Assembly: GCA_022710165.1 (NCBI GenBank)
Contig: JAKLHL010000001.1
Coordinates: forward strand, 1-29,150
DNA length: 29,150 nt
Direction of reading: 5' to 3'
Source of the DNA: Bdellovibrionales bacterium
Lineage (GTDB): Bacteria; Bdellovibrionota; JAFGOL01
The notes beneath the pieces are model-generated. The model worked only from the letters and a program-made list of their open reading frames with translations. It was not told the origin of the DNA and did no database searches. A program made the translations under genes and the position numbers. Below, in pieces: positions 15,975 to 29,042 of this stretch (its first letter is position 1; every line of letters starts with the position of its first letter).

Positions 15975-16439
15975 TTATATTTGCTTTAATAGATTTACCA
16001 TCTCAATAACGCTGATCGCAGCATCTGAACCTTTGTTCCCGCCCTTGCTTCCGGCTCTTTCTATCGCCTGTTCCATGTTGTCAGCTGTAACAACACCAAA
16101 GCCTATTGGAGTGCTCTCGTCAATCATCACTTTTGCTATCCCTTTTGAGACCTCGCTGCTTACATATTCAAAGTGAGGTGTTGCACCTCTTATCACACAG
16201 GCAAGAGCAACTATACCGTCATATTTTTTTGAAGCCGCAAGGGTCTTGCAGGCCAATGGCATTTCAAAAGCGCCAGGTACCCACAGAACACTTACCTTAT
16301 CGCTATCAAGACCATGTCTATTTAAAGTATCCAAAGCCCCATCCAGCATCCTCTGGGTCATAAAGCTGTTGAACCTTGATACCACTATAGCTATCTTACA
16401 TGATTTAGCTTCTAGTTTTCCTTCTATAACCTTAGGCAT
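15975..16439 (-). CDS. ribH: 6,7-dimethyl-8-ribityllumazine synthase
   Basis: [30 protein letters not shown]. Start set at MPKVIEG (16439) with GGAGGT upstream. Confidence 0.97.
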
Positions 16440-16543
16440 ACACACACCTCCGAATAAATCTAAATCCGCAAAACAAATAGCACAAAAACGAATTATTGCA
16501 TAGCGTTCAAAAGATTAAAAAGACACCCTCTAAGACCTTGAAA

Positions 16544-17761
16544 TCAATTGATATCTAGGTCATGACCCATTTTTTTCTTCTTTGTACTCAGATACCTAAG
16601 ATTATGCACATTAGGCTCTATTACTATGGGCACGGTCTCTATTATCTCCAAACCATAACCACCAAGCCCAACCCTTTTTGCAGGATTGTTGGTTAGAAGT
16701 CTTATCTTTTTAACACCAAGATAGTGAAGTATCTGTGCGCCAACTCCATAATCCCTTAGATCTGGCTTAAAACCAAGCGCACAATTAGCTTCAACTGTAT
16801 CCATATTCTTTTCTTGCTGAAGATGATAGGCCTTTATCTTATTGATAAGACCAATGCCTCTTCCTTCCTGTCTCATATAGACTATAACACCTGCGCCTTC
16901 TTCATCTATGAGTTTCATCGCCTGGTGCAGCTGATCACCGCAGTCACACCTCAAGGACCCGAACACATCACCAGTAAGACACTCTGAATGGACCCTAACA
17001 AGTGTTGGTTTGTCAGGTTTTATATCGCCCTTAACAATTGCAATATGAACAAAAGGATCAGCCTCGTTAGAAAAAGCCACTATCTCAAATCCTTCACCAA
17101 AAGCTGTTGGGAGTTTCGCCCTTGCCTCTTCCTTTATCAGGGTCTCGTTTGCCATTCTGTATTTTATTATATCCGCTATTGTGCCTATTTTTATTCCGTG
17201 AACTTTAGAGAACTCAACAAGATCATCCATCCTTGCCATAGTACCGTCGTCTTTCATTATCTCACAAATTACAGCGGCAGATTTTAGACCAGCCATTCGA
17301 GAAAGATCTACAGAACCTTCTGTCTGCCCAGCTCTTTTAAGCACGCCACCCTTACAGGCCCTTAGAGGAAAAACATGACCAGGAGTAACGATATCAGAAG
17401 GCTTTACATTATCATTTATAGCAGCAAGTATCGTAGTGGCCCTGTCATGAGCGCTTATACCCGTGGTAACACCTTTTGCAGCCTCTATTGATACAGTAAA
17501 AGCGGTCCCGAACTGTGATTTATTATCATCTGTCATCATGGGGAGTTTTAAACGATCAACTATCTCACCGTCCAAGCTTAGACATATAAGCCCCCTGCCA
17601 TATTTTGCCATGAAGTTTATTACATCAGGCGTAACGAACTCTGCGGCAACTACAAGGTCTCCCTCATTCTCTCTATCCTCATCATCAACAAGGATAACCA
17701 TCTTGCCTTTCTTAATTTCATCTATAAGTTCTTTTACCGGTGATATGTATGTCTTACTCAT
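16544..17761 (-). CDS. ribBA: Bifunctional DHBP synthase / GTP cyclohydrolase II
   Basis: DDEDRENEGD, GRGLIC, TGISAHDR, RAGQTEGS; VRVHSECLTGD, RCDCG, RQEGRGIGL, LLTNNP. ATG 17761 has a GAGGT SD. Confidence 0.97.
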   Translation of the reverse strand: MSKTYISPVKELIDEIKKGKMVILVDDEDRENEGDLVVAAEFVTPDVINFMAKYGRGLICLSLDGEIVDRLKLPMMTDDNKSQFGTAFTVSIEAAKGVTTGISAHDRATTILAAINDNVKPSDIVTPGHVFPLRACKGGVLKRAGQTEGSVDLSRMAGLKSAAVICEIMKDDGTMARMDDLVEFSKVHGIKIGTIADIIKYRMANETLIKEEARAKLPTAFGEGFEIVAFSNEADPFVHIAIVKGDIKPDKPTLVRVHSECLTGDVFGSLRCDCGDQLHQAMKLIDEEGAGVIVYMRQEGRGIGLINKIKAYHLQQEKNMDTVEANCALGFKPDLRDYGVGAQILHYLGVKKIRLLTNNPAKRVGLGGYGLEIIETVPIVIEPNVHNLRYLSTKKKKMGHDLDIN

Positions 17762-18377
17762 AACCAAGACCTCTTAGATATTCTTCTGTTAATTTAGAGC
17801 CCGGCTTTTTTGAAACCATTTTGTTTATATATTTGGCGAGTATATCAAACTCAAGATTCACTGTGTCACCTGCTTTTTGACCCAGAAGATTAGTTTCTTT
17901 TAAAGTATAAGGGATAAGAGTTAGTCTGAACTTTTTATCTTCTACCTCGTTAACAGTAAGGCTTACTCCATTGACCGCAACGCTGCCTTTACTGACCATA
18001 AGCAAAGAGTATTTTTCATCATACTCTACGTACATATCGATACTTGATCCGTTATTCACCACTTTTGAGATCTTACCGATAGTATCTACATGACCAGTTA
18101 CAAAATGTCCGCCGAATCGTCCGTCGGCAGGCATTGCCCTTTCAAGATTCACAGTATCATTTGCTTTTAGTGAAGAAAGATCAGTATGAGAAAGACTTTC
18201 TTTAGATACATCAAAGCCAAGGATATTGGAATTTATCCCTGATACAGTAAGGCAAACACCGTTCACGCACACTGAGTCCCCTAGTTTAACACTAAAGTCT
18301 GGATCAACCTGGACCTCCAATCTATTGGAGCCAAAACTTTTTACCTTACCCGTCTTTTCTATAATACCTGTAAACAT
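17754..18377 (-). CDS. ribE: Riboflavin synthase (alpha chain)
   Basis: Canonical N-terminus MFTGII at 18377; DSVCVNGVCLT, VNLERA, GGHFVTGHVD, KGSVAVNGVSLT, VNLEFD. Confidence 0.97.
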   Translation of the reverse strand: MFTGIIEKTGKVKSFGSNRLEVQVDPDFSVKLGDSVCVNGVCLTVSGINSNILGFDVSKESLSHTDLSSLKANDTVNLERAMPADGRFGGHFVTGHVDTIGKISKVVNNGSSIDMYVEYDEKYSLLMVSKGSVAVNGVSLTVNEVEDKKFRLTLIPYTLKETNLLGQKAGDTVNLEFDILAKYINKMVSKKPGSKLTEEYLRGLGYE

Positions 18378-18387
18378 AACACCGTCC

Positions 18388-19425
18388 TTAAATATCAAAA
18401 TAGCCCTCTAGGGCAAGTGTATTCTCTAGCAACTCTTCCTTTTCTACCACCATATTTGGCATTTTGGGTGCTTTATTATCTTCATCAAGTTCTACCGGAG
18501 CCACAAAGACATTGAATTTATCTATCATATCAACCGCATCTTTAATGAATGCTCCTATCAATACTGGTCCAGCTTCCACCATTACCTCTCTGGCATTAAG
18601 TTCTTCACAAAGTCTTGGCATAAGCTTCCTTATATCTATTAGACCTTTGTCGTTAAGCTCGGATTTTATCATTTTGACGCCATCTATTTTTTTATCACTG
18701 CCAGTAACGACAATTACTTCTTTGGCGAACTTAAATACTTTCAGTTCTCTCTTTTCATAACGCTCATATAGTTTAAGACCCTCGTCTAATATCACCACTC
18801 TACAAGAGCTGAACTTTGGATCATCTTTTTCCACAGTACCAATACCTGTAACTATAAGATCAGAAAAAGCTCTCAGTTCATGTACTCTCTTTCTGGCAGT
18901 TTCGCCGGTGAACCAAGTGCTGCCCATTATACCATTAGCTGACACAGCCAACTTGATCCTCACGAACGGCAGACCTTTTGTGTTGTATTTATGAAAACCA
19001 GGATTTAAGTCTCTGCACGCCTTTTCCAAAACACCTGTCTTAACTTCTACGCCGCCAGATCTTAATTTTGCTATACCCTCACCGCAAACAGTTTTACAAT
19101 CATCTGTAGTCCCTACGTAGACCCTTTTTATCCCAGCGTTAATTATAGCCTCTGAACACGGCGGGGTTTTTCCTTGATGATTACATGGTTCAAGTGTCAC
19201 ACAAAGGTTCTTCCCGTTTATATTGCAGTTCCTTTTTTTAGCATCATTTATAGCCTCGACCTCTGCATGATCTGATCCAAAAGACCTATGATAACCCTCG
19301 CCCAAGACATTTCCCTGGTCATCAAAAATAACGGCGCCAACCCTCGGGTTTGGCAGGGTTTCAGACTTGGCCTTTCTTGCCAAGAGTATAGACCTTCTCA
19401 TCAATGATTCTATTAGCTCTTTCAT
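18388..19425 (-). CDS. ribD: Bifunctional diaminohydroxyphosphoribosylaminopyrimidine deaminase / reductase
   Basis: PNPRVGA, HAE, TLEPCNHQGKTPPC zinc motif. Reductase half (WFTGETAR, GIGTVEKDDP, VEAG) is somewhat compact. Confidence 0.93.
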   Translation of the reverse strand: MKELIESLMRRSILLARKAKSETLPNPRVGAVIFDDQGNVLGEGYHRSFGSDHAEVEAINDAKKRNCNINGKNLCVTLEPCNHQGKTPPCSEAIINAGIKRVYVGTTDDCKTVCGEGIAKLRSGGVEVKTGVLEKACRDLNPGFHKYNTKGLPFVRIKLAVSANGIMGSTWFTGETARKRVHELRAFSDLIVTGIGTVEKDDPKFSSCRVVILDEGLKLYERYEKRELKVFKFAKEVIVVTGSDKKIDGVKMIKSELNDKGLIDIRKLMPRLCEELNAREVMVEAGPVLIGAFIKDAVDMIDKFNVFVAPVELDEDNKAPKMPNMVVEKEELLENTLALEGYFDI

Positions 19426-19847
19426 TTCTTAAGATTTTTTGCTTCCTCGTAAAGTTTTTTATCCTCTTCGGTCTTTGGCTCTATAACAACCCCATGCGGA
19501 GTTGGTTTTGTATGTTCGTTAACATGTACAAAAGATATGAACCCATCAACAATAACATCCTGGCTGCCTCTTAAAGAGACTTTTGTATAGGCGACTATAC
19601 TGGTCTTTCCTGCATAAACGGTCTTACTCGAAAAGCGGACTATATCGCCAAGCCTAACAGGCTTAGAAAAATGCATCCCATGCATTTTAACGCATATAAG
19701 GTTCTGGGGTTTGACCAGTTCAGTTGCTGCTATAAAAGATGACTCAACGAACCACTCGGCACTCCTTCCAGCAAAAAGTGTTCCATGATGGTTAAGGTCC
19801 TCTGATTTTATCAACCTATGAGTAACGAATTCTTTTGGGGTGCTCAT
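19422..19847 (-). CDS. Hotdog-fold acyl-CoA thioesterase
   Basis: EDLNHHGTLFAG, HFSKPVRLGD, AGKTSI, FVHVNEHTKP match YciA-type hotdog thioesterases. Confidence 0.85.
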   Translation of the reverse strand: MSTPKEFVTHRLIKSEDLNHHGTLFAGRSAEWFVESSFIAATELVKPQNLICVKMHGMHFSKPVRLGDIVRFSSKTVYAGKTSIVAYTKVSLRGSQDVIVDGFISFVHVNEHTKPTPHGVVIEPKTEEDKKLYEEAKNLKK

Positions 19848-19851
19848 TTTA

Positions 19852-20202
19852 TTACCTCACTATTTTGTTTGTTTCGTCTAATCTTATTACTGTTGGCTTA
19901 TGGGTCCTTATATCTTTCTCTTCTATGTGAGCATAAGAGGCCACTATTATCTTGTCGCCGGCTTTCGCCCTGTGCGCAGCAGCACCATTAACGAAAAAAT
20001 TGCTGCTGCCTGCCGGTTCCTTAATTACGTAAGTAGAGAAACGTTCACCGTTAGTAACATTATAGACATCGATCCTTTCATTAACATAAAGACCGCAGGC
20101 CTCTATCATGTCCTCGGGTATTCCAAGGCTACCTTCGTAGTTAAGATCGGTCCTTGTAACTCTTGCACCATGGATCTTTGATTTCAATACTTCTATCAAC
20201 AT
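19852..20202 (-). CDS. panD: Aspartate 1-decarboxylase
   Basis: KSKIH, YEG-S self-cleavage site, RFSTY, NGAAAH, GDKII. Confidence 0.97.
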   Translation of the reverse strand: MLIEVLKSKIHGARVTRTDLNYEGSLGIPEDMIEACGLYVNERIDVYNVTNGERFSTYVIKEPAGSSNFFVNGAAAHRAKAGDKIIVASYAHIEEKDIRTHKPTVIRLDETNKIVR

Positions 20203-20219: not shown

Positions 20220-21056
20220 TTATAGTATAATATTATCTATCAACCTCACCGAACCGCAAAAGCCCGCAACTGCCACCAAACAGCCTTGTGATGCATTTTC
20301 CACACTGCTTAGATCGTTGGCGTCCAGTATCTCAAGATACTGAACAGATACATCAGGGACCAGAACACTAAGACCTATTTTTTTCAAATTATCGGTTTCG
20401 TTATTACCCTTTTCGAAAGACTCCTTTATAGCTTTAAGGGCTTTGTTTATTTTCAATGCTTTTTTTCTATCCTCAGTGCTCAAATAAGAATTCCTCGAGC
20501 TCATTGCAAGACCATCATCATCCCTCACTAAAGTACACGGAACCACCTCTACTCCCATGTTAAGTGCTTCGCTCATCTTTCTTATCAAGACCAACTGCTG
20601 ATAATCTTTCATCCCAAAGTAAGCCCTGTTCGGATGGCATATGTTAAAAAGTTTTGCTACCACAGTAAGAACGCCGTCAAAGTGACCGGGCCTGAATTTC
20701 CCACAAAGGGCTGTGCTTGCCGTTTTTTCTGTGACAAAAAAGCTGTTCCCACCGTCTTTATAGATAGCGTCAACTTCCGGTACGAAAACAAAGTCACAAC
20801 CAGCCTTTTCAAGCTTTTCCATGTCAGCTTCTATAGTACGAGGGTACTTGTTGTAGTCCTCTGATGGACCAAATTGTGTTGGGTTAACAAAGATGCTTAC
20901 TCCGACAATGTTATTCTCTTTCTTGGCACGCTCCACCAAAGAGACATGCCCCTGATGAAGATTCCCCATTGTAGGAACGAACCCTACGGTTTTACCTACA
21001 GACTTTATCAACGACGTAAAATGTTTTACCTGATCGATGTTCTTAAAGACTTTCAT
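20220..21056 (-). CDS. panC: Pantoate--beta-alanine ligase
   Basis: PTMGNLHQGH, SIFVNPTQF, RPGHFDGV, FGMKDYQQ, GLAMSSRN. TGATG overlap with coaBC. Confidence 0.97.
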   Translation of the reverse strand: MKVFKNIDQVKHFTSLIKSVGKTVGFVPTMGNLHQGHVSLVERAKKENNIVGVSIFVNPTQFGPSEDYNKYPRTIEADMEKLEKAGCDFVFVPEVDAIYKDGGNSFFVTEKTASTALCGKFRPGHFDGVLTVVAKLFNICHPNRAYFGMKDYQQLVLIRKMSEALNMGVEVVPCTLVRDDDGLAMSSRNSYLSTEDRKKALKINKALKAIKESFEKGNNETDNLKKIGLSVLVPDVSVQYLEILDANDLSSVENASQGCLVAVAGFCGSVRLIDNIIL

Positions 21057-22282
21057 CAATGTGCCTCTTGAGATGTTTTAGCCTTTGCCGCTTCCTGACC
21101 TGCAAGTAGTTTTTCTACTTCTTTTAATATTTCATCAGCTACTATCCTTTTCTCTGACTCCTTAACGTATTTCCTTATACCCTTGGAGTCGATTATGACC
21201 ACGCTGCTTGAATTAGAATCTATGGCCTCTACGGAATTGGCCACGATAAGGTCCATACCTTTTGAGTTGAGTTTTTCTTTTGCGTTGCGCTCAAGGTCAC
21301 TGGTCTCTAAGGCAAAACCTATCATGAGCTGTTTTTTCTTCGATCTGGAAAGTTCGCTAAAAACATCAACTGACGGTTTTAGTTTTATTGTTATGTCTTT
21401 GTTGTCTTTTTTTATCTTCTCCAGCTGAGGCTCGTTCTTAAAATCACAAAGAGCGCCAGCGCTGATATAAATATCTGCAGCATCAAAAAGACCGCGGACA
21501 TTATTATAAACGTCTTCGGTGGTCTCTACCAAAACTGTCGTATCTGTGTAATACTTTGCCCACTGGAACTTTTCTATGACCTCTTTGTTGCATATCAATG
21601 TAACCTTTGCTCCCCTAAGCCAAGCCTGTCTCGCAAGTTCTGCACCCATAAGACCACTTGACCCATTCTCTATATATCTGACAGGGTCTATATAGGACTT
21701 TGTTGAACCGGCAGTAATAAGGACGTTCTTGCCAGATAAAGAAGAGAATATCTCTGCCCTTTCTGTTTCTGCCATCACCATCTGGTAAATAAGATCAACG
21801 TCCGGAAGCCTGCCCTTTCCTGTATCTCCGCAAGCAAGTTCTCCTTCTGCAGGGTCGTAAACAATATATCCCCAATCCCTAAGCTTAGCGATATTATCGT
21901 TAACAGAAGGGTGTGTAAGCATATTCGTGTTCATTGCCGGGAAGATGTAGCAAGGTTTATCTAAAGCAAGCACGACCGTACTTAAGAGGTCGTCACAGAT
22001 ACCATTAGCTATCTTGCCTATTATGTTCGCAGTAGCCGGGGCTATTATCATTATGTCTGCCCATTTTCCAAGCTCCACATGTTCAACATCCCTGGTACTG
22101 CTAAAAAGCTCTGTGTGGCATTTGTTCTTACTAAGGGTCTCAAGCGTAACAGGAGTAACAAAATACTTGGCGTTCTCTGTAAGGATGGTCTTAACCTGAT
22201 GACCCTCCTTAATGAAAAGCCTTACAAGGTCAGCTATCTTGTATGCAGCTATCCCGCCGCTAACACCTATCAATATATTCAT
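21056..22282 (-). CDS. coaBC: Phosphopantothenoylcysteine decarboxylase / phosphopantothenate--cysteine ligase
   Basis: GGIAAYK, HVELGKWAD, APATAN, PAMN, ELACGDTGKGRL; TAGST..IDPVRYIENGSSGLMG, GFALET, DLIVAN. Confidence 0.96.
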   Translation of the reverse strand: MNILIGVSGGIAAYKIADLVRLFIKEGHQVKTILTENAKYFVTPVTLETLSKNKCHTELFSSTRDVEHVELGKWADIMIIAPATANIIGKIANGICDDLLSTVVLALDKPCYIFPAMNTNMLTHPSVNDNIAKLRDWGYIVYDPAEGELACGDTGKGRLPDVDLIYQMVMAETERAEIFSSLSGKNVLITAGSTKSYIDPVRYIENGSSGLMGAELARQAWLRGAKVTLICNKEVIEKFQWAKYYTDTTVLVETTEDVYNNVRGLFDAADIYISAGALCDFKNEPQLEKIKKDNKDITIKLKPSVDVFSELSRSKKKQLMIGFALETSDLERNAKEKLNSKGMDLIVANSVEAIDSNSSSVVIIDSKGIRKYVKESEKRIVADEILKEVEKLLAGQEAAKAKTSQEAH

Positions 22283-22283
22283 A

Positions 22284-23003
22284 TTAAGCTCCTCTATTAT
22301 TGTGTATGTTCATCATCCCTCTGAATATAAGGTTATCAACATACTCATATTTCATCTCTAATAGTTCACCCAAGAATTTCCCTGCTCCACCGGTAACAAG
22401 GACTTTCATATCGCTGAGCCCAAAACTTTCGCGTGATGCCGATATTATGTGTTTTACGCCAGAAGCGATGGTAAGGCAGATCCCGCAATTCATTGCATTC
22501 ATGGTATCTGTGCCATAAGAGCCTTTTGGAGAGATCGGTTTTAGACGTGGCAGCATAAAAGTGTAATCATTAAGTGCTTTAAAGCAAAGTTCAAAGCCAG
22601 GAATTATAACGCCACCCTTATAGACATTAACACCATCCTGTTTGATCACAAAATCCACGGTTATAGCCGTGCCTGCGTCTATAACAACAAAAGGAGGGTC
22701 AAGCAGCGTAATACCGCCTTCGACAGCAATAAGCCTGTCCGTACCAACACCGTCTACGTTATGTTTAAAAGAAAATTTCGATCTATTATTTATCAAACCA
22801 AATTTCTTACCTATAGACTGCAGGTATAATCCAAGCTCGTTTATCATATCAGGTACGACACCTGAGACCACAACAGCATCACAGCCTATAAGGACATCCC
22901 TTGTTGACCTTGGGTCAAATCCTGTAGTAGGGAAAGAATGAAGGGTCATCCTCTCGTCCATTATCTTTATATTAGTGTTACCAACATCTATATAGGCAGC
23001 CAT
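22284..23003 (-). CDS. coaX: Type III pantothenate kinase
   Basis: IDVGNTNIK, GTDRL, VIDAGTAITVD, GGVIIPG, TGGAG. Confidence 0.95.
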   Translation of the reverse strand: MAAYIDVGNTNIKIMDERMTLHSFPTTGFDPRSTRDVLIGCDAVVVSGVVPDMINELGLYLQSIGKKFGLINNRSKFSFKHNVDGVGTDRLIAVEGGITLLDPPFVVIDAGTAITVDFVIKQDGVNVYKGGVIIPGFELCFKALNDYTFMLPRLKPISPKGSYGTDTMNAMNCGICLTIASGVKHIISASRESFGLSDMKVLVTGGAGKFLGELLEMKYEYVDNLIFRGMMNIHNNRGA

Positions 23004-23008
23004 CGCAT

Positions 23009-23767
23009 CTATTCTCCTCTTACTTGTTTAGAGAAATCATTTACAGCCTTCTTTATCTCACCGGCAAGGTCCAGTTTTGGTTTAACGAAAGATGGGACTT
23101 TTGATGTTGTTAGACCTATAAGGTCGTTTATGACGAGGACCTGGCCGTCGGTGTAAGGACCAGAACCTATGCCAATTGTTGGGACGCTCACCTCTTGTGT
23201 TACTGCCTTTGAAAGCTCCTCGTTAACACACTCAAGGACTATAGAAAAAACACCGGCATCACAAAGTGCTTTTGCGTCATTCATTATCTGCTCTGCAGAT
23301 TTTTGAGTATTGCCCTGTGTTTTATATCCTCCAAGTTTAAGGTAACTTTGAGGTGTAAGACCAAGATGTCCCATAACAGGAACACCTGCGTTGCCGAGAG
23401 CCTTTATAAGTTCAACGTGTTCTTTGCCACCTTCTATTTTTACACCGTGAGCGCCAGTGCTCTGCATAACGTTCATAACATTTTCAAGAGATCTTTCTAG
23501 TCCCATTGAAATGCTCATGAACGGCATGTCAACTATGACAACCTTGTTAGGAGCACCTTTAACAACGGCTTTTGCATGATGTATCATATCGTTAAGCGTT
23601 ACAGCGATAGTATCCTTGTGACCGAGCATTACGTTGCCCAGCGAATCACCAACAAGGATCATGTCTATGTCGGTCTGGTCCAGTATGCTGGCCATAGAAT
23701 AATCATATGCTGTGAGCATAGTTATCTTGTGCGTACCTTTTTTATTCAACAAATTCCCTGGATACAT
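23009..23767 (-). CDS. panB: 3-methyl-2-oxobutanoate hydroxymethyltransferase
   Basis: MLTAYD, LVGDSLG, DMPF, VKIEGG, GHLGLTPQ, IGIGSG, DGQVLV. Confidence 0.97.
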   Translation of the reverse strand: MYPGNLLNKKGTHKITMLTAYDYSMASILDQTDIDMILVGDSLGNVMLGHKDTIAVTLNDMIHHAKAVVKGAPNKVVIVDMPFMSISMGLERSLENVMNVMQSTGAHGVKIEGGKEHVELIKALGNAGVPVMGHLGLTPQSYLKLGGYKTQGNTQKSAEQIMNDAKALCDAGVFSIVLECVNEELSKAVTQEVSVPTIGIGSGPYTDGQVLVINDLIGLTTSKVPSFVKPKLDLAGEIKKAVNDFSKQVRGE

Positions 23768-23785: not shown

Positions 23786-24907
23786 TCAAGAAAAACTTTG
23801 AACGGCCGAGTCAAAATGTTTGGACCTTTTTCTTATCTGCTCTGCGATATTCTTTTTACTTGAACCACCAAGCGTTGAAAGGAATTTCTTGGTCTTGATG
23901 TCATCAAAGGCATTATGCATTATCTCTTTTATAGACCTTCCTTTTTCCATTTCTTCCCAGATCTTGAATCCGCCCGATGCAGCAACGGGGCTTATGGCTT
24001 CGTACATCCCTGATATGCCTTTCTCTTTTATTACGTCCAGCATGTAGGACAGCTCATAAAGGCACTCTTGAAGTGCAACCTCTTCTGATATCCCCTTTTC
24101 CTTAAGCATATTGAAAGTCTCTACTATTAACGCTGGAACTCCGCCGCAAATTATCATCTGTTCAGTAAAAAGATCAGATAATGTCTCTTCCAAAAAAGTC
24201 GATCTTATCAAAGGATAAAGTTTAAGGCCTTTAGCCAACTCTATGGCAATGTTCTTATCCTTAACGGATTCAGTATAAATAACCGCTGGAGTGTTTTTGT
24301 CGTCCAAATAATTCATCCTCATGGTCCTTGCAACGGACTTAGGCGCAAGAAGGATCTTTCTGGCATTTAGTTTGATCCCTTCATAAGAAACGCTAAAACC
24401 GTGTGCAAATATAAAAACGAACTCCGGGTCTATGATGCTTGAATATTTATCAAAGAACTTTTTGTGATCTTCATCAGGCATTAAAACACAAAACACCTTG
24501 CTGTCTGGATTTAAGAGGCCATCCTTTATGCTCTTAACCTCAAAGCCGTCATCAAGCGCTTTCTTTATGGAGGAACTCCCTTCTCTCAAGAGGACTGTAA
24601 CAACAACTCCAGAGTCCCTTAGATTTTTTGCCCACACCGCACCCTGATTACCATAACCGATCACATTGACCCTCAACCTCGTACGATCGTTCGTGGTCAA
24701 TGGGTCTTTCTTAAGTTCTTTTGATCTTTTTATTTCAAGGATGGTCTCAAGTGCATCTTTGGTCCAGACCCTCCAGCCCCTTCCATCACGCAGTGGTTTT
24801 GGTATGGTGCCATCCTCTTCCCATCTTATCAATGTGTTCTTAGAAACACCCAAAAGACGTGCAAGCTCTGAAGAGTTGTAATAAGGTCCGTTATATTTTT
24901 TATTCAT
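23786..24907 (-). CDS. ilvC: MerR-like winged-HTH fused to short (class I) ketol-acid reductoisomerase; probably provides ketopantoate reductase activity
   Basis: aa 9-60 SELARLLGVSKNTLIRWEEDGTIPKPLRDGRGWRVWT is a MerR-type HTH plus wing. From about aa 78: GYGNQG, NLRDSG, LREGSSS, MPDE, FAHGF, APK, DLFTEQ..CGG, ECLYEL, all KARI motifs. One uninterrupted frame. Confidence 0.9.
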   Translation of the reverse strand: MNKKYNGPYYNSSELARLLGVSKNTLIRWEEDGTIPKPLRDGRGWRVWTKDALETILEIKRSKELKKDPLTTNDRTRLRVNVIGYGNQGAVWAKNLRDSGVVVTVLLREGSSSIKKALDDGFEVKSIKDGLLNPDSKVFCVLMPDEDHKKFFDKYSSIIDPEFVFIFAHGFSVSYEGIKLNARKILLAPKSVARTMRMNYLDDKNTPAVIYTESVKDKNIAIELAKGLKLYPLIRSTFLEETLSDLFTEQMIICGGVPALIVETFNMLKEKGISEEVALQECLYELSYMLDVIKEKGISGMYEAISPVAASGGFKIWEEMEKGRSIKEIMHNAFDDIKTKKFLSTLGGSSKKNIAEQIRKRSKHFDSAVQSFS

Positions 24908-24945
24908 AGGTATACCTATCTATACCCACAAATAAAAGATGTCAA
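24906..24945 (-). promoter_or_regulatory. Candidate promoter and operator of the HTH-ilvC/pan/coa/rib operon
   Basis: Perfect TTGACA at 24945-24940; possible -10 TATAGA or TAGATA (15- or 17-nt spacer). Perfect 14-bp palindrome ATAGGTATACCTAT at 24906-24919. TATACC direct repeat at 24911 and 24921. Confidence 0.55.
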
Positions 24946-24950
24946 GCCAT

Positions 24951-25616
24951 CTAAACCCTAAGGCCTGTTGCGCTATACCCTTGATCTTTAAAGATATTTT
25001 CAAATAATTCGAGCTGATCCTTGTCGTAAGTTCTTTCGTTATTGCACTTTTGAATGAACAATCTATCCCTATGGTTCAAGCATGGGAGCAATTCATCTAT
25101 GACAGTGGTATCTATAAAATCAGGATAGCAGGTCATTCTAAGTTCATAATCAACGCCCGAGTCTTTAATGATGTTGTAGCTTTCAAGTATCCTTGAACCA
25201 TCAACTCCAAGTGAGTTTTTATATCTTTCAAAAGAGGTCTTTATATCAAGCGCAAGATAATCAACGATTTTTTTAGAGATGAGTTCTTTTATGACTTGTG
25301 GATTAGATCCATTGGTATCCAGCTTTATTAAAAGTCCGTATGTTCTTTTTATCTCTGAACAAAAATCTACAAGATCCTTTTGAAGAGTTGGTTCGCCCCC
25401 GCTTATTGATACACCGTCTATAAAACCTGCCCTTTCTTTTAAAACATCAAATATATCATCCATGGGCATGGCTTCTGGTTGTTCTGCAAAATCAAAAGAT
25501 ATCTGTTTGTTATGGCAGTAAGGACACTTCATATTACAGCCAATAGTGAACAGAACTGTACAAACTTTACCAGGATAATCTATCAAGCTTGTCTTTTGGA
25601 CACCGGCTATCTGCAC
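24951..25616 (-). CDS. nrdG: Anaerobic ribonucleotide reductase activating protein (radical SAM)
   Basis: KTSLIDYPGK, GCNMKCPYCHN (CxxxCxxC), SGGEPT, KLDTNG, LDIK. GTG start 2 nt after nrdD. Confidence 0.95.
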   Translation of the reverse strand: MQIAGVQKTSLIDYPGKVCTVLFTIGCNMKCPYCHNKQISFDFAEQPEAMPMDDIFDVLKERAGFIDGVSISGGEPTLQKDLVDFCSEIKRTYGLLIKLDTNGSNPQVIKELISKKIVDYLALDIKTSFERYKNSLGVDGSRILESYNIIKDSGVDYELRMTCYPDFIDTTVIDELLPCLNHRDRLFIQKCNNERTYDKDQLELFENIFKDQGYSATGLRV

Positions 25617-25618
25617 AT

Positions 25619-27742
25619 TTATACACGGCTCATTTTATAAGTTTCTCTTATCTCGAACTCCGCTTGTTTTCCCTTGTTCCATTGTCTTACCGGTCTGTAA
25701 AAACCGACGACCCTTGAGAATACCTCTGTATCACAATGTCCGTTATCATTTGGGCACTTGTCGTGCCTGCCAGTTATATATCCATGATTTGAGCAGACTG
25801 TGAAAGTTGGTGATATCGTAAAATAAGGAAGATGGAAATTAGATGTTATCTTTTTAACAAGGTTCTTGCAGGATTCAGAGGAATCCATCGCTTCGCCTAT
25901 GAAACCATGCAACACGGTACCGCCGGTGTACTGAGTTTGAAGATCGTCCTGCTGTTTTAGGGCTTCAAATATGTCGCTTGTAAAATCAACCGGCAGATGT
26001 GTCGAGTTCGTATAGAACGGGATCTCCTTCCCTTGAGTCCTTATCTCTGGGAATTTTTTCTTATCAAGCTGTGCTAGTCTGTATGAAGTTCCCTCTGCAG
26101 GGGTGGCTTCAAGATTATAAAGATGTTTTGTCTCTATCTGATATTCCCTCATCCTTTCTCTCATCAGGGTCAATATCTCTTTAGAGAACCTGTGGCCTCT
26201 TTCTGTGGTTATGGTTTCCCCGAAAAGATTAAGACAGGCTTCGTTCATTCCAACCAATCCTATAGTAGAAAAATGGTTCGCCCAGTAACTTCCATGATGC
26301 TGATATATTGGTTCAAGATATATCTTGGAGACTGGATAAAGGTTGTGGTCCATCAATTTGTCGAGGACCTTTCTCTTTATTTCCAATGAGTCTTTAGCCT
26401 TGTCCATCAGATCAATAAGGCGCTCTTTGAACTCTTTCTCGTCTGCAGAAAGATAACCAAGTCTAGGCATATTTATTGTAACAACACCTATAGAACCCGT
26501 CATAGGATTTGAGCCAAAAAGCCCTCCACCCCTTGCAACAAGCTCTCTGTTATCAAGTCTCAGCCTGCAGCACATGGACCTTGCATCCTCTGGCTTCATG
26601 TCGCTGTTAACGTAGTTAGAGAAATATGGGATACCGTACTTTTTTGTCATGTCCCAAAGGAAATCATATTTTGGGTTATCCCATTCAAAATCCTTTGTGA
26701 TGTTATATGTCGGGATAGGGAAAGAAAAGATCCTTCCCATTGCATCGCCGGCCATAAGGACTTCGCAGAAAGCCCTGTTTATCATTATCATCTCTTCGTG
26801 GAAATCCTTATAGGTATCCGTTGGATGAAGAGTCCCGCCCCAGACCACAGGTTCGTCCCTGTGAGTAGACGGTACTTCAAGGTCCATGGTTATATTTGTA
26901 AAAGGTGTCTGGAAGCCAACCCTTGTAGGAACGTTCATATTGAATATGAACTCCTGCATAGCCTGTTTTATTTCTGCATATGAAAGCCCGTCGTACTTAA
27001 CGAATGGTGCAAGATAAGTATCAAAGTTTGAGAAAGCCTGAGCACCAGCTGATTCTCCCTGTAGAGTATAGAAGAAATTAACTATCTGGCCCAAGGCCGC
27101 CCTAAAATGTTTTGCCGGTTTACTCTGAACCTGTCCATAACTTCCTCTAAATCCTTTTAGCAAAAGCTCCTTAAGGTCCCAGCCGCAGCAATAGGTGCTG
27201 ACCAGGCCAAGATCATGAAGATGAAAATCACCCTCGCTGTGAGCTTCACGTATCTCTGCAGGGTATATCTTGTTAAGCCAGTAAAGGGCGGATACTTTAG
27301 ATGAGATGTAGTTATTCAAGCCCTGCAGGGAGTAACCCATGTTGCTGTTCTCTTTTATCCTCCAATCATCCCTTCCAAGATATTCATCAATTACTTCTAT
27401 AGAGTCCATCAAAAAATCCTTGGACTCTCTTATCTTTCTTCTCTGTTCTCTGTATAGTATGAAAGCCTTGGCCGTTTTTGCATGGCCAAGCTCTATCAGG
27501 GTTTTCTCGACCAGGTCTTGTATCTCTTCTACGTTAGGGGTTGTCCCGCTGGCTGCGTGCCTTTGGACCAGCATTTGATAAATATGGTACGCAACATGAT
27601 CTGCTATTTTAGTATCTTTTCCACCAACAGCTTTAGCTGCTTTAAAGATAGCGTGTGATATCTTTTTCTCGTCAAAAGGAACAGTTTGGCCATCCCTCTT
27701 TACGACGTACAATAGCGAACCCGAATTTGTAGTATTTGACAT
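25619..27742 (-). CDS. nrdD: Class III (anaerobic) ribonucleoside-triphosphate reductase with N-terminal ATP cone
   Basis: VVKRDG..FDEKKI ATP cone; KENSNM, HLHDL, YCCGW, AGAQAF, SMCCRL, YNLEATPAEG, QTQYTGGT; C-terminal metal site and glycyl-radical loop SRVVGFYRP. Confidence 0.97.
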   Translation of the reverse strand: MSNTTNSGSLLYVVKRDGQTVPFDEKKISHAIFKAAKAVGGKDTKIADHVAYHIYQMLVQRHAASGTTPNVEEIQDLVEKTLIELGHAKTAKAFILYREQRRKIRESKDFLMDSIEVIDEYLGRDDWRIKENSNMGYSLQGLNNYISSKVSALYWLNKIYPAEIREAHSEGDFHLHDLGLVSTYCCGWDLKELLLKGFRGSYGQVQSKPAKHFRAALGQIVNFFYTLQGESAGAQAFSNFDTYLAPFVKYDGLSYAEIKQAMQEFIFNMNVPTRVGFQTPFTNITMDLEVPSTHRDEPVVWGGTLHPTDTYKDFHEEMIMINRAFCEVLMAGDAMGRIFSFPIPTYNITKDFEWDNPKYDFLWDMTKKYGIPYFSNYVNSDMKPEDARSMCCRLRLDNRELVARGGGLFGSNPMTGSIGVVTINMPRLGYLSADEKEFKERLIDLMDKAKDSLEIKRKVLDKLMDHNLYPVSKIYLEPIYQHHGSYWANHFSTIGLVGMNEACLNLFGETITTERGHRFSKEILTLMRERMREYQIETKHLYNLEATPAEGTSYRLAQLDKKKFPEIRTQGKEIPFYTNSTHLPVDFTSDIFEALKQQDDLQTQYTGGTVLHGFIGEAMDSSESCKNLVKKITSNFHLPYFTISPTFTVCSNHGYITGRHDKCPNDNGHCDTEVFSRVVGFYRPVRQWNKGKQAEFEIRETYKMSRV

Positions 27743-27921
27743 ATAAAACCCCCATAACCCGTAACGAAAATACTACACGTTTTAAAATTACAGTTCCATA
27801 TTTTTACTAAAATCGAACTAAAATTTTTATAAAACACCTAAGTATCTGAAATATAATAAAAATGATTTTAACTGCCAGAAGACGTGATAAAATATCATTG
27901 ACAAAAAAAGGAGTTTTAGGA

Positions 27922-28344
27922 ATGGCACGAATAGGAGTGATATCGGACACGCACGGCAGTTTGTCGTCTAAGATATTCGACATTTTCAAGGATGTTGACC
28001 TGATAATACACGCAGGGGACATAGGGAAAGACGAGATAATAACTGAACTTGAGACCATAGCCAGAGTAAGTGCCGTCCACGGCAATATAGATGGCCACGA
28101 TCTACTTAATAGATACCCAAGGCAGATGGTCTTAGATGAGTTCGGATTAAAGATACACGTCTCACATAAGGACAGTCACAGCGCCGGATCTGTGGATATA
28201 GCCATACAGGGCCACACACATTTGGCAGAAATTAAAAGGGAGCTAGGAAAACTTTACATCAACCCCGGAAAAGCATCAGATTCAGTCGTTATATTGGAAA
28301 TAGACGACAGGTCTATTATAGATTCAAAGATAGTGTTCCTTTGA
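27922..28344 (+). CDS. YfcE/MJ0936-family metallophosphoesterase
   Basis: ISDTHG, HAGD, HGNID, GHTH, INPG. Start set at MARIG (27922) with AGGAG upstream; the listed 27862 start is probably too long. Confidence 0.9.
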   Translation: MARIGVISDTHGSLSSKIFDIFKDVDLIIHAGDIGKDEIITELETIARVSAVHGNIDGHDLLNRYPRQMVLDEFGLKIHVSHKDSHSAGSVDIAIQGHTHLAEIKRELGKLYINPGKASDSVVILEIDDRSIIDSKIVFL

Positions 28345-28352
28345 TCTTTGAC

Positions 28353-29042
28353 CTAGAGATCCTTTTTACATTCATCTATGCAGTTATCAGTAAGGAGGCC
28401 ATACTCCTTACCTATAATTAAAAGCCTTTCTACTTCTTCCTTTGGCAGTGGAGGTACTCCTCCAAGCATCTTTGCAACAACACCAGTAAGGGCTGCATTC
28501 TCCAGCCTTTCAAGCTTGTTGTAAGCGCTGTATATGTCACTCCCTACAGTCAGGACACCGTGCCTTTTAAGTACAACAGCGTCGAAATTCTTTATATACC
28601 CTTCTATTATGTCGGCGTTCTGTGGACTTCCGACCGTAGAGTAGGCGGTAACGGGAATGCTGCCCATGGTGACCACGACTTCTGGAAGCACATCTACAGG
28701 AGGTTTAACATCAGCGACGGTATATGCTGTAATATATGGCGGATGAGAGTGAATAACGGCATTAATATCCGGCCTTAATTTATATGCCCTTAAATGCATC
28801 CTCCATTCAGATGATGGCTTTAACTTTTTATTACCTGATATTACTTTTGCATTCTCATCTATTACTATAAGGTCACTAGCCTTCATAAATGCCTTGTTCA
28901 GACCGCTTGGGGTCATAAGGAACTTGTTCTTTGCTACCTTGATGCTTATATTGCCATCCGTGGCACAGATAAAGCCTTTGGCGTTCATGAGCTTAGCCAC
29001 CTCTATTATGCTGGCTTTAAGGTTTTTGAGGTCTTTTTCCAT
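28353..29042 (-). CDS. Class II aldolase/adducin family protein (FucA/MtnB-like)
   Basis: TDGNIS, TPSG, KPSSEWRMH, AVIHSHPP, VLKRHG, ERLE: catalytic Glu and three Zn-binding His present. Confidence 0.92.
   Translation of the reverse strand: MEKDLKNLKASIIEVAKLMNAKGFICATDGNISIKVAKNKFLMTPSGLNKAFMKASDLIVIDENAKVISGNKKLKPSSEWRMHLRAYKLRPDINAVIHSHPPYITAYTVADVKPPVDVLPEVVVTMGSIPVTAYSTVGSPQNADIIEGYIKNFDAVVLKRHGVLTVGSDIYSAYNKLERLENAALTGVVAKMLGGVPPLPKEEVERLLIIGKEYGLLTDNCIDECKKDL

Follow-up and report, generated by a model that had tools for sequence, protein, structure and literature searches.

BirA, NadR and PutA each unite an enzyme with an HTH acting on genes of the enzyme's own cofactor or amino-acid pathway, and their regulons are tiny and include autoregulation. 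The gene described here, an N-terminal MerR-type HTH fused to a ketol-acid reductoisomerase (KARI), similarly places an enzyme domain and a DNA-binding domain in one polypeptide and would also serve a tiny regulon that includes itself, but both its HTH class (MerR type) and its enzyme class (KARI) differ from those of the three precedents. It lies in a 29,150-nucleotide stretch of a Bdellovibrionales genome (contig JAKLHL010000001.1), hereafter the window. No enzyme-repressor of this kind was found for the CoA pathway in the literature searched.

Canonical members of the MerR family (MerR, CueR, SoxR, NmlR) share with HTH-KARI the winged HTH, the signature TLxRWE...R.G.R.W and a palindromic operator of ~18-22 bp. 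Unlike them, HTH-KARI has neither the alpha-5 coiled coil nor the C-terminal effector pocket, and its candidate operator would cover the -10/start region rather than sit within a 19-20-bp spacer. In MerR-type promoters (MerR, CueR, SoxR), the dyad centre is found inside this spacer, ~10 bp downstream of the -35 element. The closest precedent is CarH. Like HTH-KARI, CarH/CarA proteins carry a MerR-type HTH without the coiled coil, connected by a linker to a ligand-binding body with a Rossmann-like fold; CarH is a repressor, the oligomeric state of its body controls operator binding, and among the structural matches (Foldseek) it has the highest sequence identity to the HTH studied here (31-32%). 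The CarH body is a B12-binding photoreceptor, however, whereas the HTH-KARI body is an enzyme of the pathway that it would regulate, and CarH uses 11-bp direct repeats where HTH-KARI is associated with an 18-22-bp dyad.

With regard to the enzyme, Corynebacterium glutamicum IlvC acts as a ketopantoate reductase. IlvC, a class I KARI, can replace PanE experimentally, and Buchnera IlvC serves as a ketopantoate reductase (PMC4306246). HTH-KARI has the same fold and the same catalytic residues and would likewise stand in for a missing PanE; it differs from IlvC in occurring without a branched-chain pathway, in belonging to a diverged pan-operon subclade (ISPxA, APKxIA), and in bearing a DNA-binding domain.

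How bacteria regulate CoA and pantothenate synthesis at the level of transcription is poorly understood, and type III pantothenate kinases operate without the CoA feedback of type I enzymes. A precedent for control at the reductase step comes from Thermococcus kodakarensis, whose ketopantoate reductase is given as the CoA-inhibited step in the part of PMC6650551 that cites Tomita et al. 2013. There, as we propose here, control falls on ketopantoate reductase in an organism lacking a CoA-inhibited pantothenate kinase; on that account it takes the form of allosteric or competitive inhibition of a PanE-type enzyme, whereas transcriptional control through the HTH is proposed at our locus. In kind, HTH-KARI is a combination of known things: enzyme-repressor fusions, coiled-coil-free MerR HTHs, and KARI as ketopantoate reductase. 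Through comparative analysis of sequences and predicted structures, we propose, with a probability of roughly 0.6, that it is a bifunctional ketopantoate reductase and operon autoregulator, probably a repressor.

Architecture, context and spread of the fused gene

The initial annotation described a 373-aa protein composed of a winged HTH, a short linker and a class I KARI, and all of these parts were recovered by Pfam and AlphaFold2 (AF2). The features of the window discussed below are as follows.

15975-19847, minus strand: thioesterase into riboflavin genes ribD-ribE-ribBA and ribH, a gapless continuation of the pan/coa cluster
19422-19847, minus strand: 4HBT/YciA-like acyl-CoA thioesterase, overlapping the ribD start by 4 nt
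19852-20202, minus strand: panD, above the NCBIfam cut-off
20220-21059, minus strand: panC, above the NCBIfam cut-off
21056-22282, minus strand: coaBC, above the NCBIfam cut-off
22284-23003, minus strand: coaX (type III pantothenate kinase), passing a subfamily model and not the main NCBIfam cut-off
23009-23767, minus strand: panB (ketopantoate hydroxymethyltransferase), above the NCBIfam cut-off
23786-24907, minus strand: HTH-KARI fused gene (P0001), 373 aa
23858-24673, minus strand: class I KARI module (KARI_N, residues 79-226; KARI_C, residues 238-350)
24674-24709, minus strand: flexible linker, residues 67-78, of low pLDDT and unconserved sequence
24710-24883, minus strand: MerR-type winged HTH, residues 9-66; Pfam MerR_1, MerR and HTH_17 all above cut-off
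24909-24926, no strand assigned: candidate operator, an 18-bp palindrome that reads GGTATAGATAGGTATACC on the minus strand, marked by conservation, uniqueness and co-occurrence with the HTH
24940-24945, minus strand: consensus -35 hexamer (TTGACA), the same in all 19 distinct homologous promoters
24951-27742, minus strand: nrdD-nrdG (anaerobic ribonucleotide reductase and its activase), directly upstream
27862-29042: YfcE-type phosphodiesterase and class II aldolase, beyond nrdD-nrdG

The open reading frame begins with ATG and translates with zero internal stops. Its HTH scores 36.8 bits against MerR_1 (residues 10-64; cut-off 21.6) and 33.7 bits against MerR (cut-off 28.2), and its KARI_N and KARI_C domains score 101.3 bits (cut-off 20.6) and 91 bits (cut-off 29.1), respectively, which places the module among class I KARIs. 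The AF2 model has a mean pLDDT of 90.5. Its HTH is made up of a short strand, a helix (12-19), the recognition helix (23-31), a beta wing (39-49) and a further helix (50-66), followed by disordered linker residues (67-73, pLDDT <50). When modelled in isolation, the HTH superimposes on the DNA-binding domains of MerR-family proteins with TM 0.70-0.74 and rmsd 1-2 A (Foldseek; partners NmlR, RacA, BldC, CadR, MtaN, CarH, CueR and SoxR), and the top 50 matches of the KARI body are all class I KARI. The model contains no long antiparallel MerR dimerisation helix after the HTH; the linker occupies that place and leads into the KARI Rossmann domain. Among the hallmarks of the MerR family, HTH-KARI therefore retains the winged HTH and lacks the dimerisation coiled coil and the dyad within a long spacer.

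A protein search covering 5.8 billion clusters (90% identity) and 1.84 billion representatives at 50% identity returned the full-length architecture in ~36 of the former, 42-82% identical to the query, and the next-best matches, <=40% identical, were plain KARIs. Among the 1.84 billion representatives at 50% identity, the HTH is covered by two clusters only, P0001 and P0036. The fusion is real rather than an artefact of assembly or gene calling, since the window's reading frame has no stop and these ~36 clusters, from several sources, keep the same continuous architecture on independent contigs. The longer KARI matches P0217, P0240 and P0142 carry no HTH; P0142 (523 aa, metagenomic) is a different kind of KARI fusion, with a C-terminal phosphoribosyltransferase domain. 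Public annotation labels the fused protein as either "MerR family regulator" or "ketol-acid reductoisomerase". The literature searched contains no paper that links MerR to KARI, or Bdellovibrio to pantothenate and ilvC, in keeping with the earlier impression that the architecture is undescribed.

Among 401 genomes sampled from the phylum, full-length matches are confined to the window's own family, where eight of nine genomes (1.3-1.7 Mb) encode the fusion. The exception, G052, was considered and rejected as a counter-example: it is 75% complete and carries an ordinary KARI and ilvD, and panB was not found in it. A tree built from KARI domains groups the fused proteins in a single clade (SH-aLRT 94-98). 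Its closest relative is the unfused metagenomic P0037, a 306-aa KARI (L069:2675-3595) that has the GYGNQ..VWA signature in common with the fused clade, and next is a clade of 306-307-aa unfused KARIs from the phylum's largest family. Taken with the genomic context, this topology argues strongly that the fusion arose when an HTH was added to a member of a pan-operon KARI subclade serving as ketopantoate reductase. P0037 itself is encoded on an AT-rich contig, does not adjoin panB, and is without both the HTH and the operator element described below.

Genomic context is constant downstream of the gene. On six more contigs, whose fused genes are 42-57% identical to that of the window, HTH-KARI always heads panB-coaX-coaBC-panC-panD, and the upstream neighbour varies (nrdG, CLC channel, M20 peptidase, ThiS, or hypothetical proteins). 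The checks on architecture, spread and context describe a rare fusion, found in only one small-genome family of the phylum and always at the head of a pan/coa cluster. The statement that it is the first gene of its operon requires one qualification: it does head panB-coaX-coaBC-panC-panD in the window, but nrdG, on the same strand, is a mere 43 nt upstream of it. Read-through from nrdG is possible, as no terminator was detected between the two genes. Two metatranscriptomic RNA libraries provided only three short contigs, two within the fused gene and one in panB, with no end information.

A candidate operator and its promoter geometry

Conservation in HTH-KARI is highest in the recognition helix and the wing. 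Across 34 members, 16 HTH residues are invariant (Y10, E14, S22-K-N-T25, R28, W29, E30, R40, G42, R43, W45, R46, W48 and K50) although overall identity drops to 42%, and the adjoining linker is unconserved. The DNA upstream of the gene is also conserved. Nineteen distinct promoter sequences of fused genes carry TTGACA, 13 unconserved nucleotides, and then the invariant 18-mer GGTATAGTTAGGTATACC or its reverse complement; 13 of them have one orientation and six the other, with near-zero information in the flanks. When loci were picked by protein alone, this pattern was present in 11 of 14 upstream regions. The 18-mer lies 1 to ~40 nt from the start codon among aligned loci, and a symmetric T/A pair enlarges the dyad to 22 bp, which in the window (24907-24928) takes in the A of the start codon (ATG at 24907). 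The two most distant members, L041 and L042, have degenerate elements at other distances, and none was found within 110 nt upstream of the fused gene of L043.

The element is also specific to the fused gene. GGTATA-N6-TATACC occurs as a single copy in the 1.57-Mb genome that contains the window, against 0.15 expected, and as exactly one copy, just upstream of the fused gene, in all eight family genomes that carry the fusion. For the reverse test, 241 million metagenome records were scanned with the DNA pattern alone: 12 of the 14 matches precede a same-strand HTH-KARI gene by 1-45 nt, and the remaining two have a different centre and no HTH-KARI gene. The pattern is absent from G052 and from the promoters of unfused sister KARI-panB operons. 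The HTH and the element therefore appear together and only together, and this co-occurrence is the main new evidence for HTH-KARI as an operon-specific DNA binder. Together with the invariant residues and the genome-unique promoter palindrome, it lends strong comparative support to the DNA-binding role that had been suggested for the HTH.

Two other interpretations of the element were set aside. A larger regulon is at odds with the strict genome search, which returned one site only; relaxed sites at C98:2231 (intragenic, three mismatches) and C2:11437 (a different pattern) were judged chance-like, and the 57 sites with one mismatch per arm in the same genome are uninformative. An RNA element or riboswitch was rejected on the grounds that there is no Rfam match and that the element is too near the -35 to be fully transcribed. 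As a separate observation, the 6 bp at the centre of the operator are asymmetric (GTTAGG) and conserved, yet appear inverted (CCTAAC) relative to the -35 in six of 19 promoter variants. Loci L036, L037, L038, L040 and L044 differ in this way from the window, L035 and L039, as if a turn of the entire 18-mer had taken place between the perfect arms of 6 bp. The data fit two readings of these arms, as a dyad and as GGTATA direct repeats with a spacing of 10 bp.

The position of the dyad bears on how it would work. It begins 13 nt past the -35 hexamer, and its centre is ~22 bp downstream of the -35 end. The classical MerR spacer-distortion switch does not fit this geometry (~22 bp versus ~10 bp), and HTH-KARI is not a classical MerR-type switch because the operator is outside the spacer of a 19-20-bp promoter. 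The dyad directly adjoins the ATG in five promoter variants, implying an mRNA that is leaderless or almost so. No canonical -10 hexamer is found 16-18 nt from the -35, which makes both the start of transcription and the sign of regulation uncertain. Occlusion of polymerase, hence autorepression, is the simplest and most likely reading of the dyad's position in these promoters.

The same protein and site could instead form an activator that remodels the promoter, in the manner of MerR-type DNA distortion, and induces the operon when CoA or pantoate runs short. A MerR-type HTH and a perfect TTGACA, retained in all 19 promoters next to the missing -10, are what such an activator would lead one to expect. 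However, the dyad centre is ~22 bp downstream of the -35 end, against ~10 bp in MerR-type promoters, and the coiled coil that transmits the distortion in MerR proteins is absent. We consider activation unlikely and continue to favor autorepression.

The KARI module as a probable ketopantoate reductase

The KARI motifs listed in the initial annotation were all present, and the family conserves GYGNQ, LLRxxSxS, FAHG, LLAPK, SDLFTEQ, QECLxEL and ISPxA. Specifically, the catalytic residues H169, K190, D245, E249, E281, E285 and S306 and the NADPH loop LLRxxSxS are conserved in 36 family members of 42-100% identity. The protein nevertheless scores below the IlvC equivalog cut-offs (TIGR00465, 188.5 versus 226.15; NF004017, 201.5 versus 336; NCBIfam), and its subclade carries ISPxA in place of canonical iSxTA and APKxIA in place of APKgpG. 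The low ilvC scores fit a changed substrate preference, and they could also reflect reduced activity. Likewise, it does not belong to PanE/ApbA, as the ApbA score of 13.7 bits is below the cut-off of 22.2 and covers the Rossmann part only. On these sequence criteria, HTH-KARI is a functional analogue of PanE and not a family member.

Gene content provides the physiological setting. The genome carries panB, panC, panD, coaX, coaBC, coaD, coaE and an IlvE-type aminotransferase; with coaD, coaE and the aminotransferase present, every step from valine-derived ketoisovalerate to CoA is covered apart from the reductase. At 1.57 Mb the genome is 88% complete and the family genomes are incomplete MAGs, so absences there are not proof. 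Within this 88% complete genome, no second KARI, PanE or PanG-like DUF2520 protein was found, and neither was ilvD (PF00920) or the AHAS large subunit (TIGR00118). Two candidates for a second KARI or PanE, C56 and C168, were dismissed as weak, Rossmann-only matches (PF07991, PF02558) in ORFs of 498 and 440 aa. HTH-KARI is therefore the only candidate ketopantoate reductase in the 88% complete genome, since AHAS, ilvD, PanE and PanG are absent and the pan/coa genes are present, and its KARI module is probably the only such enzyme of the cell. The enzyme seems dedicated to pantoate because the branched-chain pathway is absent here. Across the eight family genomes with the fusion, ilvD is absent from all and the PanE C-domain from seven; the remaining genome, G020, has a partial PanE_C match.

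The unfused sister KARIs extend this pattern beyond the family. These 306-307-aa proteins (L026, L028; family f9) are encoded by the first gene of KARI-panB-coaX, adjoined by a divergently transcribed class IV (IlvE-type) aminotransferase, and they share the substitutions APKxIA and ISP(N/V)A with the fused proteins. Five of their genomes, 92-99% complete, lack both ilvD and PanE. Judging from this comparison, a diverged KARI, fused or not, would seem to reduce ketopantoate in much of the phylum. The initial annotation had suggested that the KARI makes pantoate, and comparison argues strongly in its favor: the KARI is an orphan without ilvD, AHAS, PanE or PanG, it always heads a pan/coa operon, and its unfused sister clade heads the same kind of operon.

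If the KARI body were a ligand sensor and the protein a regulator only, pantoate would have to come from an unrecognised reductase or from import. The sub-cut-off ilvC scores and the altered substrate loop are in line with such a loss of catalysis, but the residues of metal binding, acid-base chemistry and the NADPH loop vary little if at all among members of 42-100% identity, panB and panC are kept with no other reductase found, and the same substitutions recur in unfused pan-operon KARIs of high-quality genomes without PanE. We regard a purely regulatory role as improbable and retain the bifunctional reading.

Proposed autoregulation and its consequences

Least probable of all is an enzyme whose HTH does not serve the palindrome (e.g., nucleoid tethering or protein contacts), leaving the palindrome to another factor or to the promoter: TATA-rich sequence in the element could belong to a -10 region, but the recognition helix and wing are the best-conserved part of the protein, the element is present only with the HTH and is missing from the sister KARI-panB promoters, and, unlike a plain -10, it is a dyad in both orientations.

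We propose that the bifunctional HTH-KARI would operate as follows: (i) the KARI module, dependent on NADPH and Mg2+, would reduce ketopantoate (2-dehydropantoate) and so make pantoate between PanB and PanC; (ii) the N-terminal MerR-type HTH, on its flexible linker of ~12 residues, would bind the single 18-22-bp palindrome that covers the -10/start region of the gene's own promoter; (iii) binding would block RNA polymerase and lead to autorepression of KARI-panB-coaX-coaBC-panC-panD, perhaps into the rib genes; and (iv) occupancy of the KARI active site by NADPH/NADP+, by ketopantoate/pantoate, or by CoA in the dinucleotide site may modulate binding. Because the coiled coil is absent, two HTHs for the dyad would have to come from the oligomeric KARI body, which would supply two or more. 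Class I KARIs are dimers or dodecamers, and the N-termini of a class I KARI dimer may be too far apart for an 18-bp dyad. A more tentative, somewhat doubtful part of the proposal is that the ketopantoate reductase, by its catalytic or ligand state, determines how strongly the entire pantothenate/CoA operon is transcribed. CoA or NADP(H) bound in the dinucleotide site might, for example, draw the KARI domains together and so place the tethered HTHs on the dyad.

If true, this last part would provide the missing end-product control for organisms with a feedback-insensitive type III pantothenate kinase, and HTH-KARI would become the first described transcription factor that is dedicated to CoA biosynthesis in bacteria. 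Should the HTH bind as proposed, it would join CarH as the second MerR HTH that functions in the absence of the coiled coil. One protein and one candidate operator defined to the base constitute a clean system, and the hosts are uncultured. The reading as a diverged KARI would also correct the automatic annotations "ilvC" and "MerR family regulator".

Finally, the pan/coa genes run without gaps into the riboflavin genes, and no match to an Rfam family, the FMN riboswitch included, exceeds its threshold in the window. Transcription from the HTH-KARI promoter may therefore extend to the riboflavin genes. With respect to the wider neighbourhood, L039, L040 and L044 keep the nrdD-nrdG/YfcE/aldolase arrangement upstream of the fused gene, and the adjacency of pan and rib genes recurs in L040, L043 and L044.
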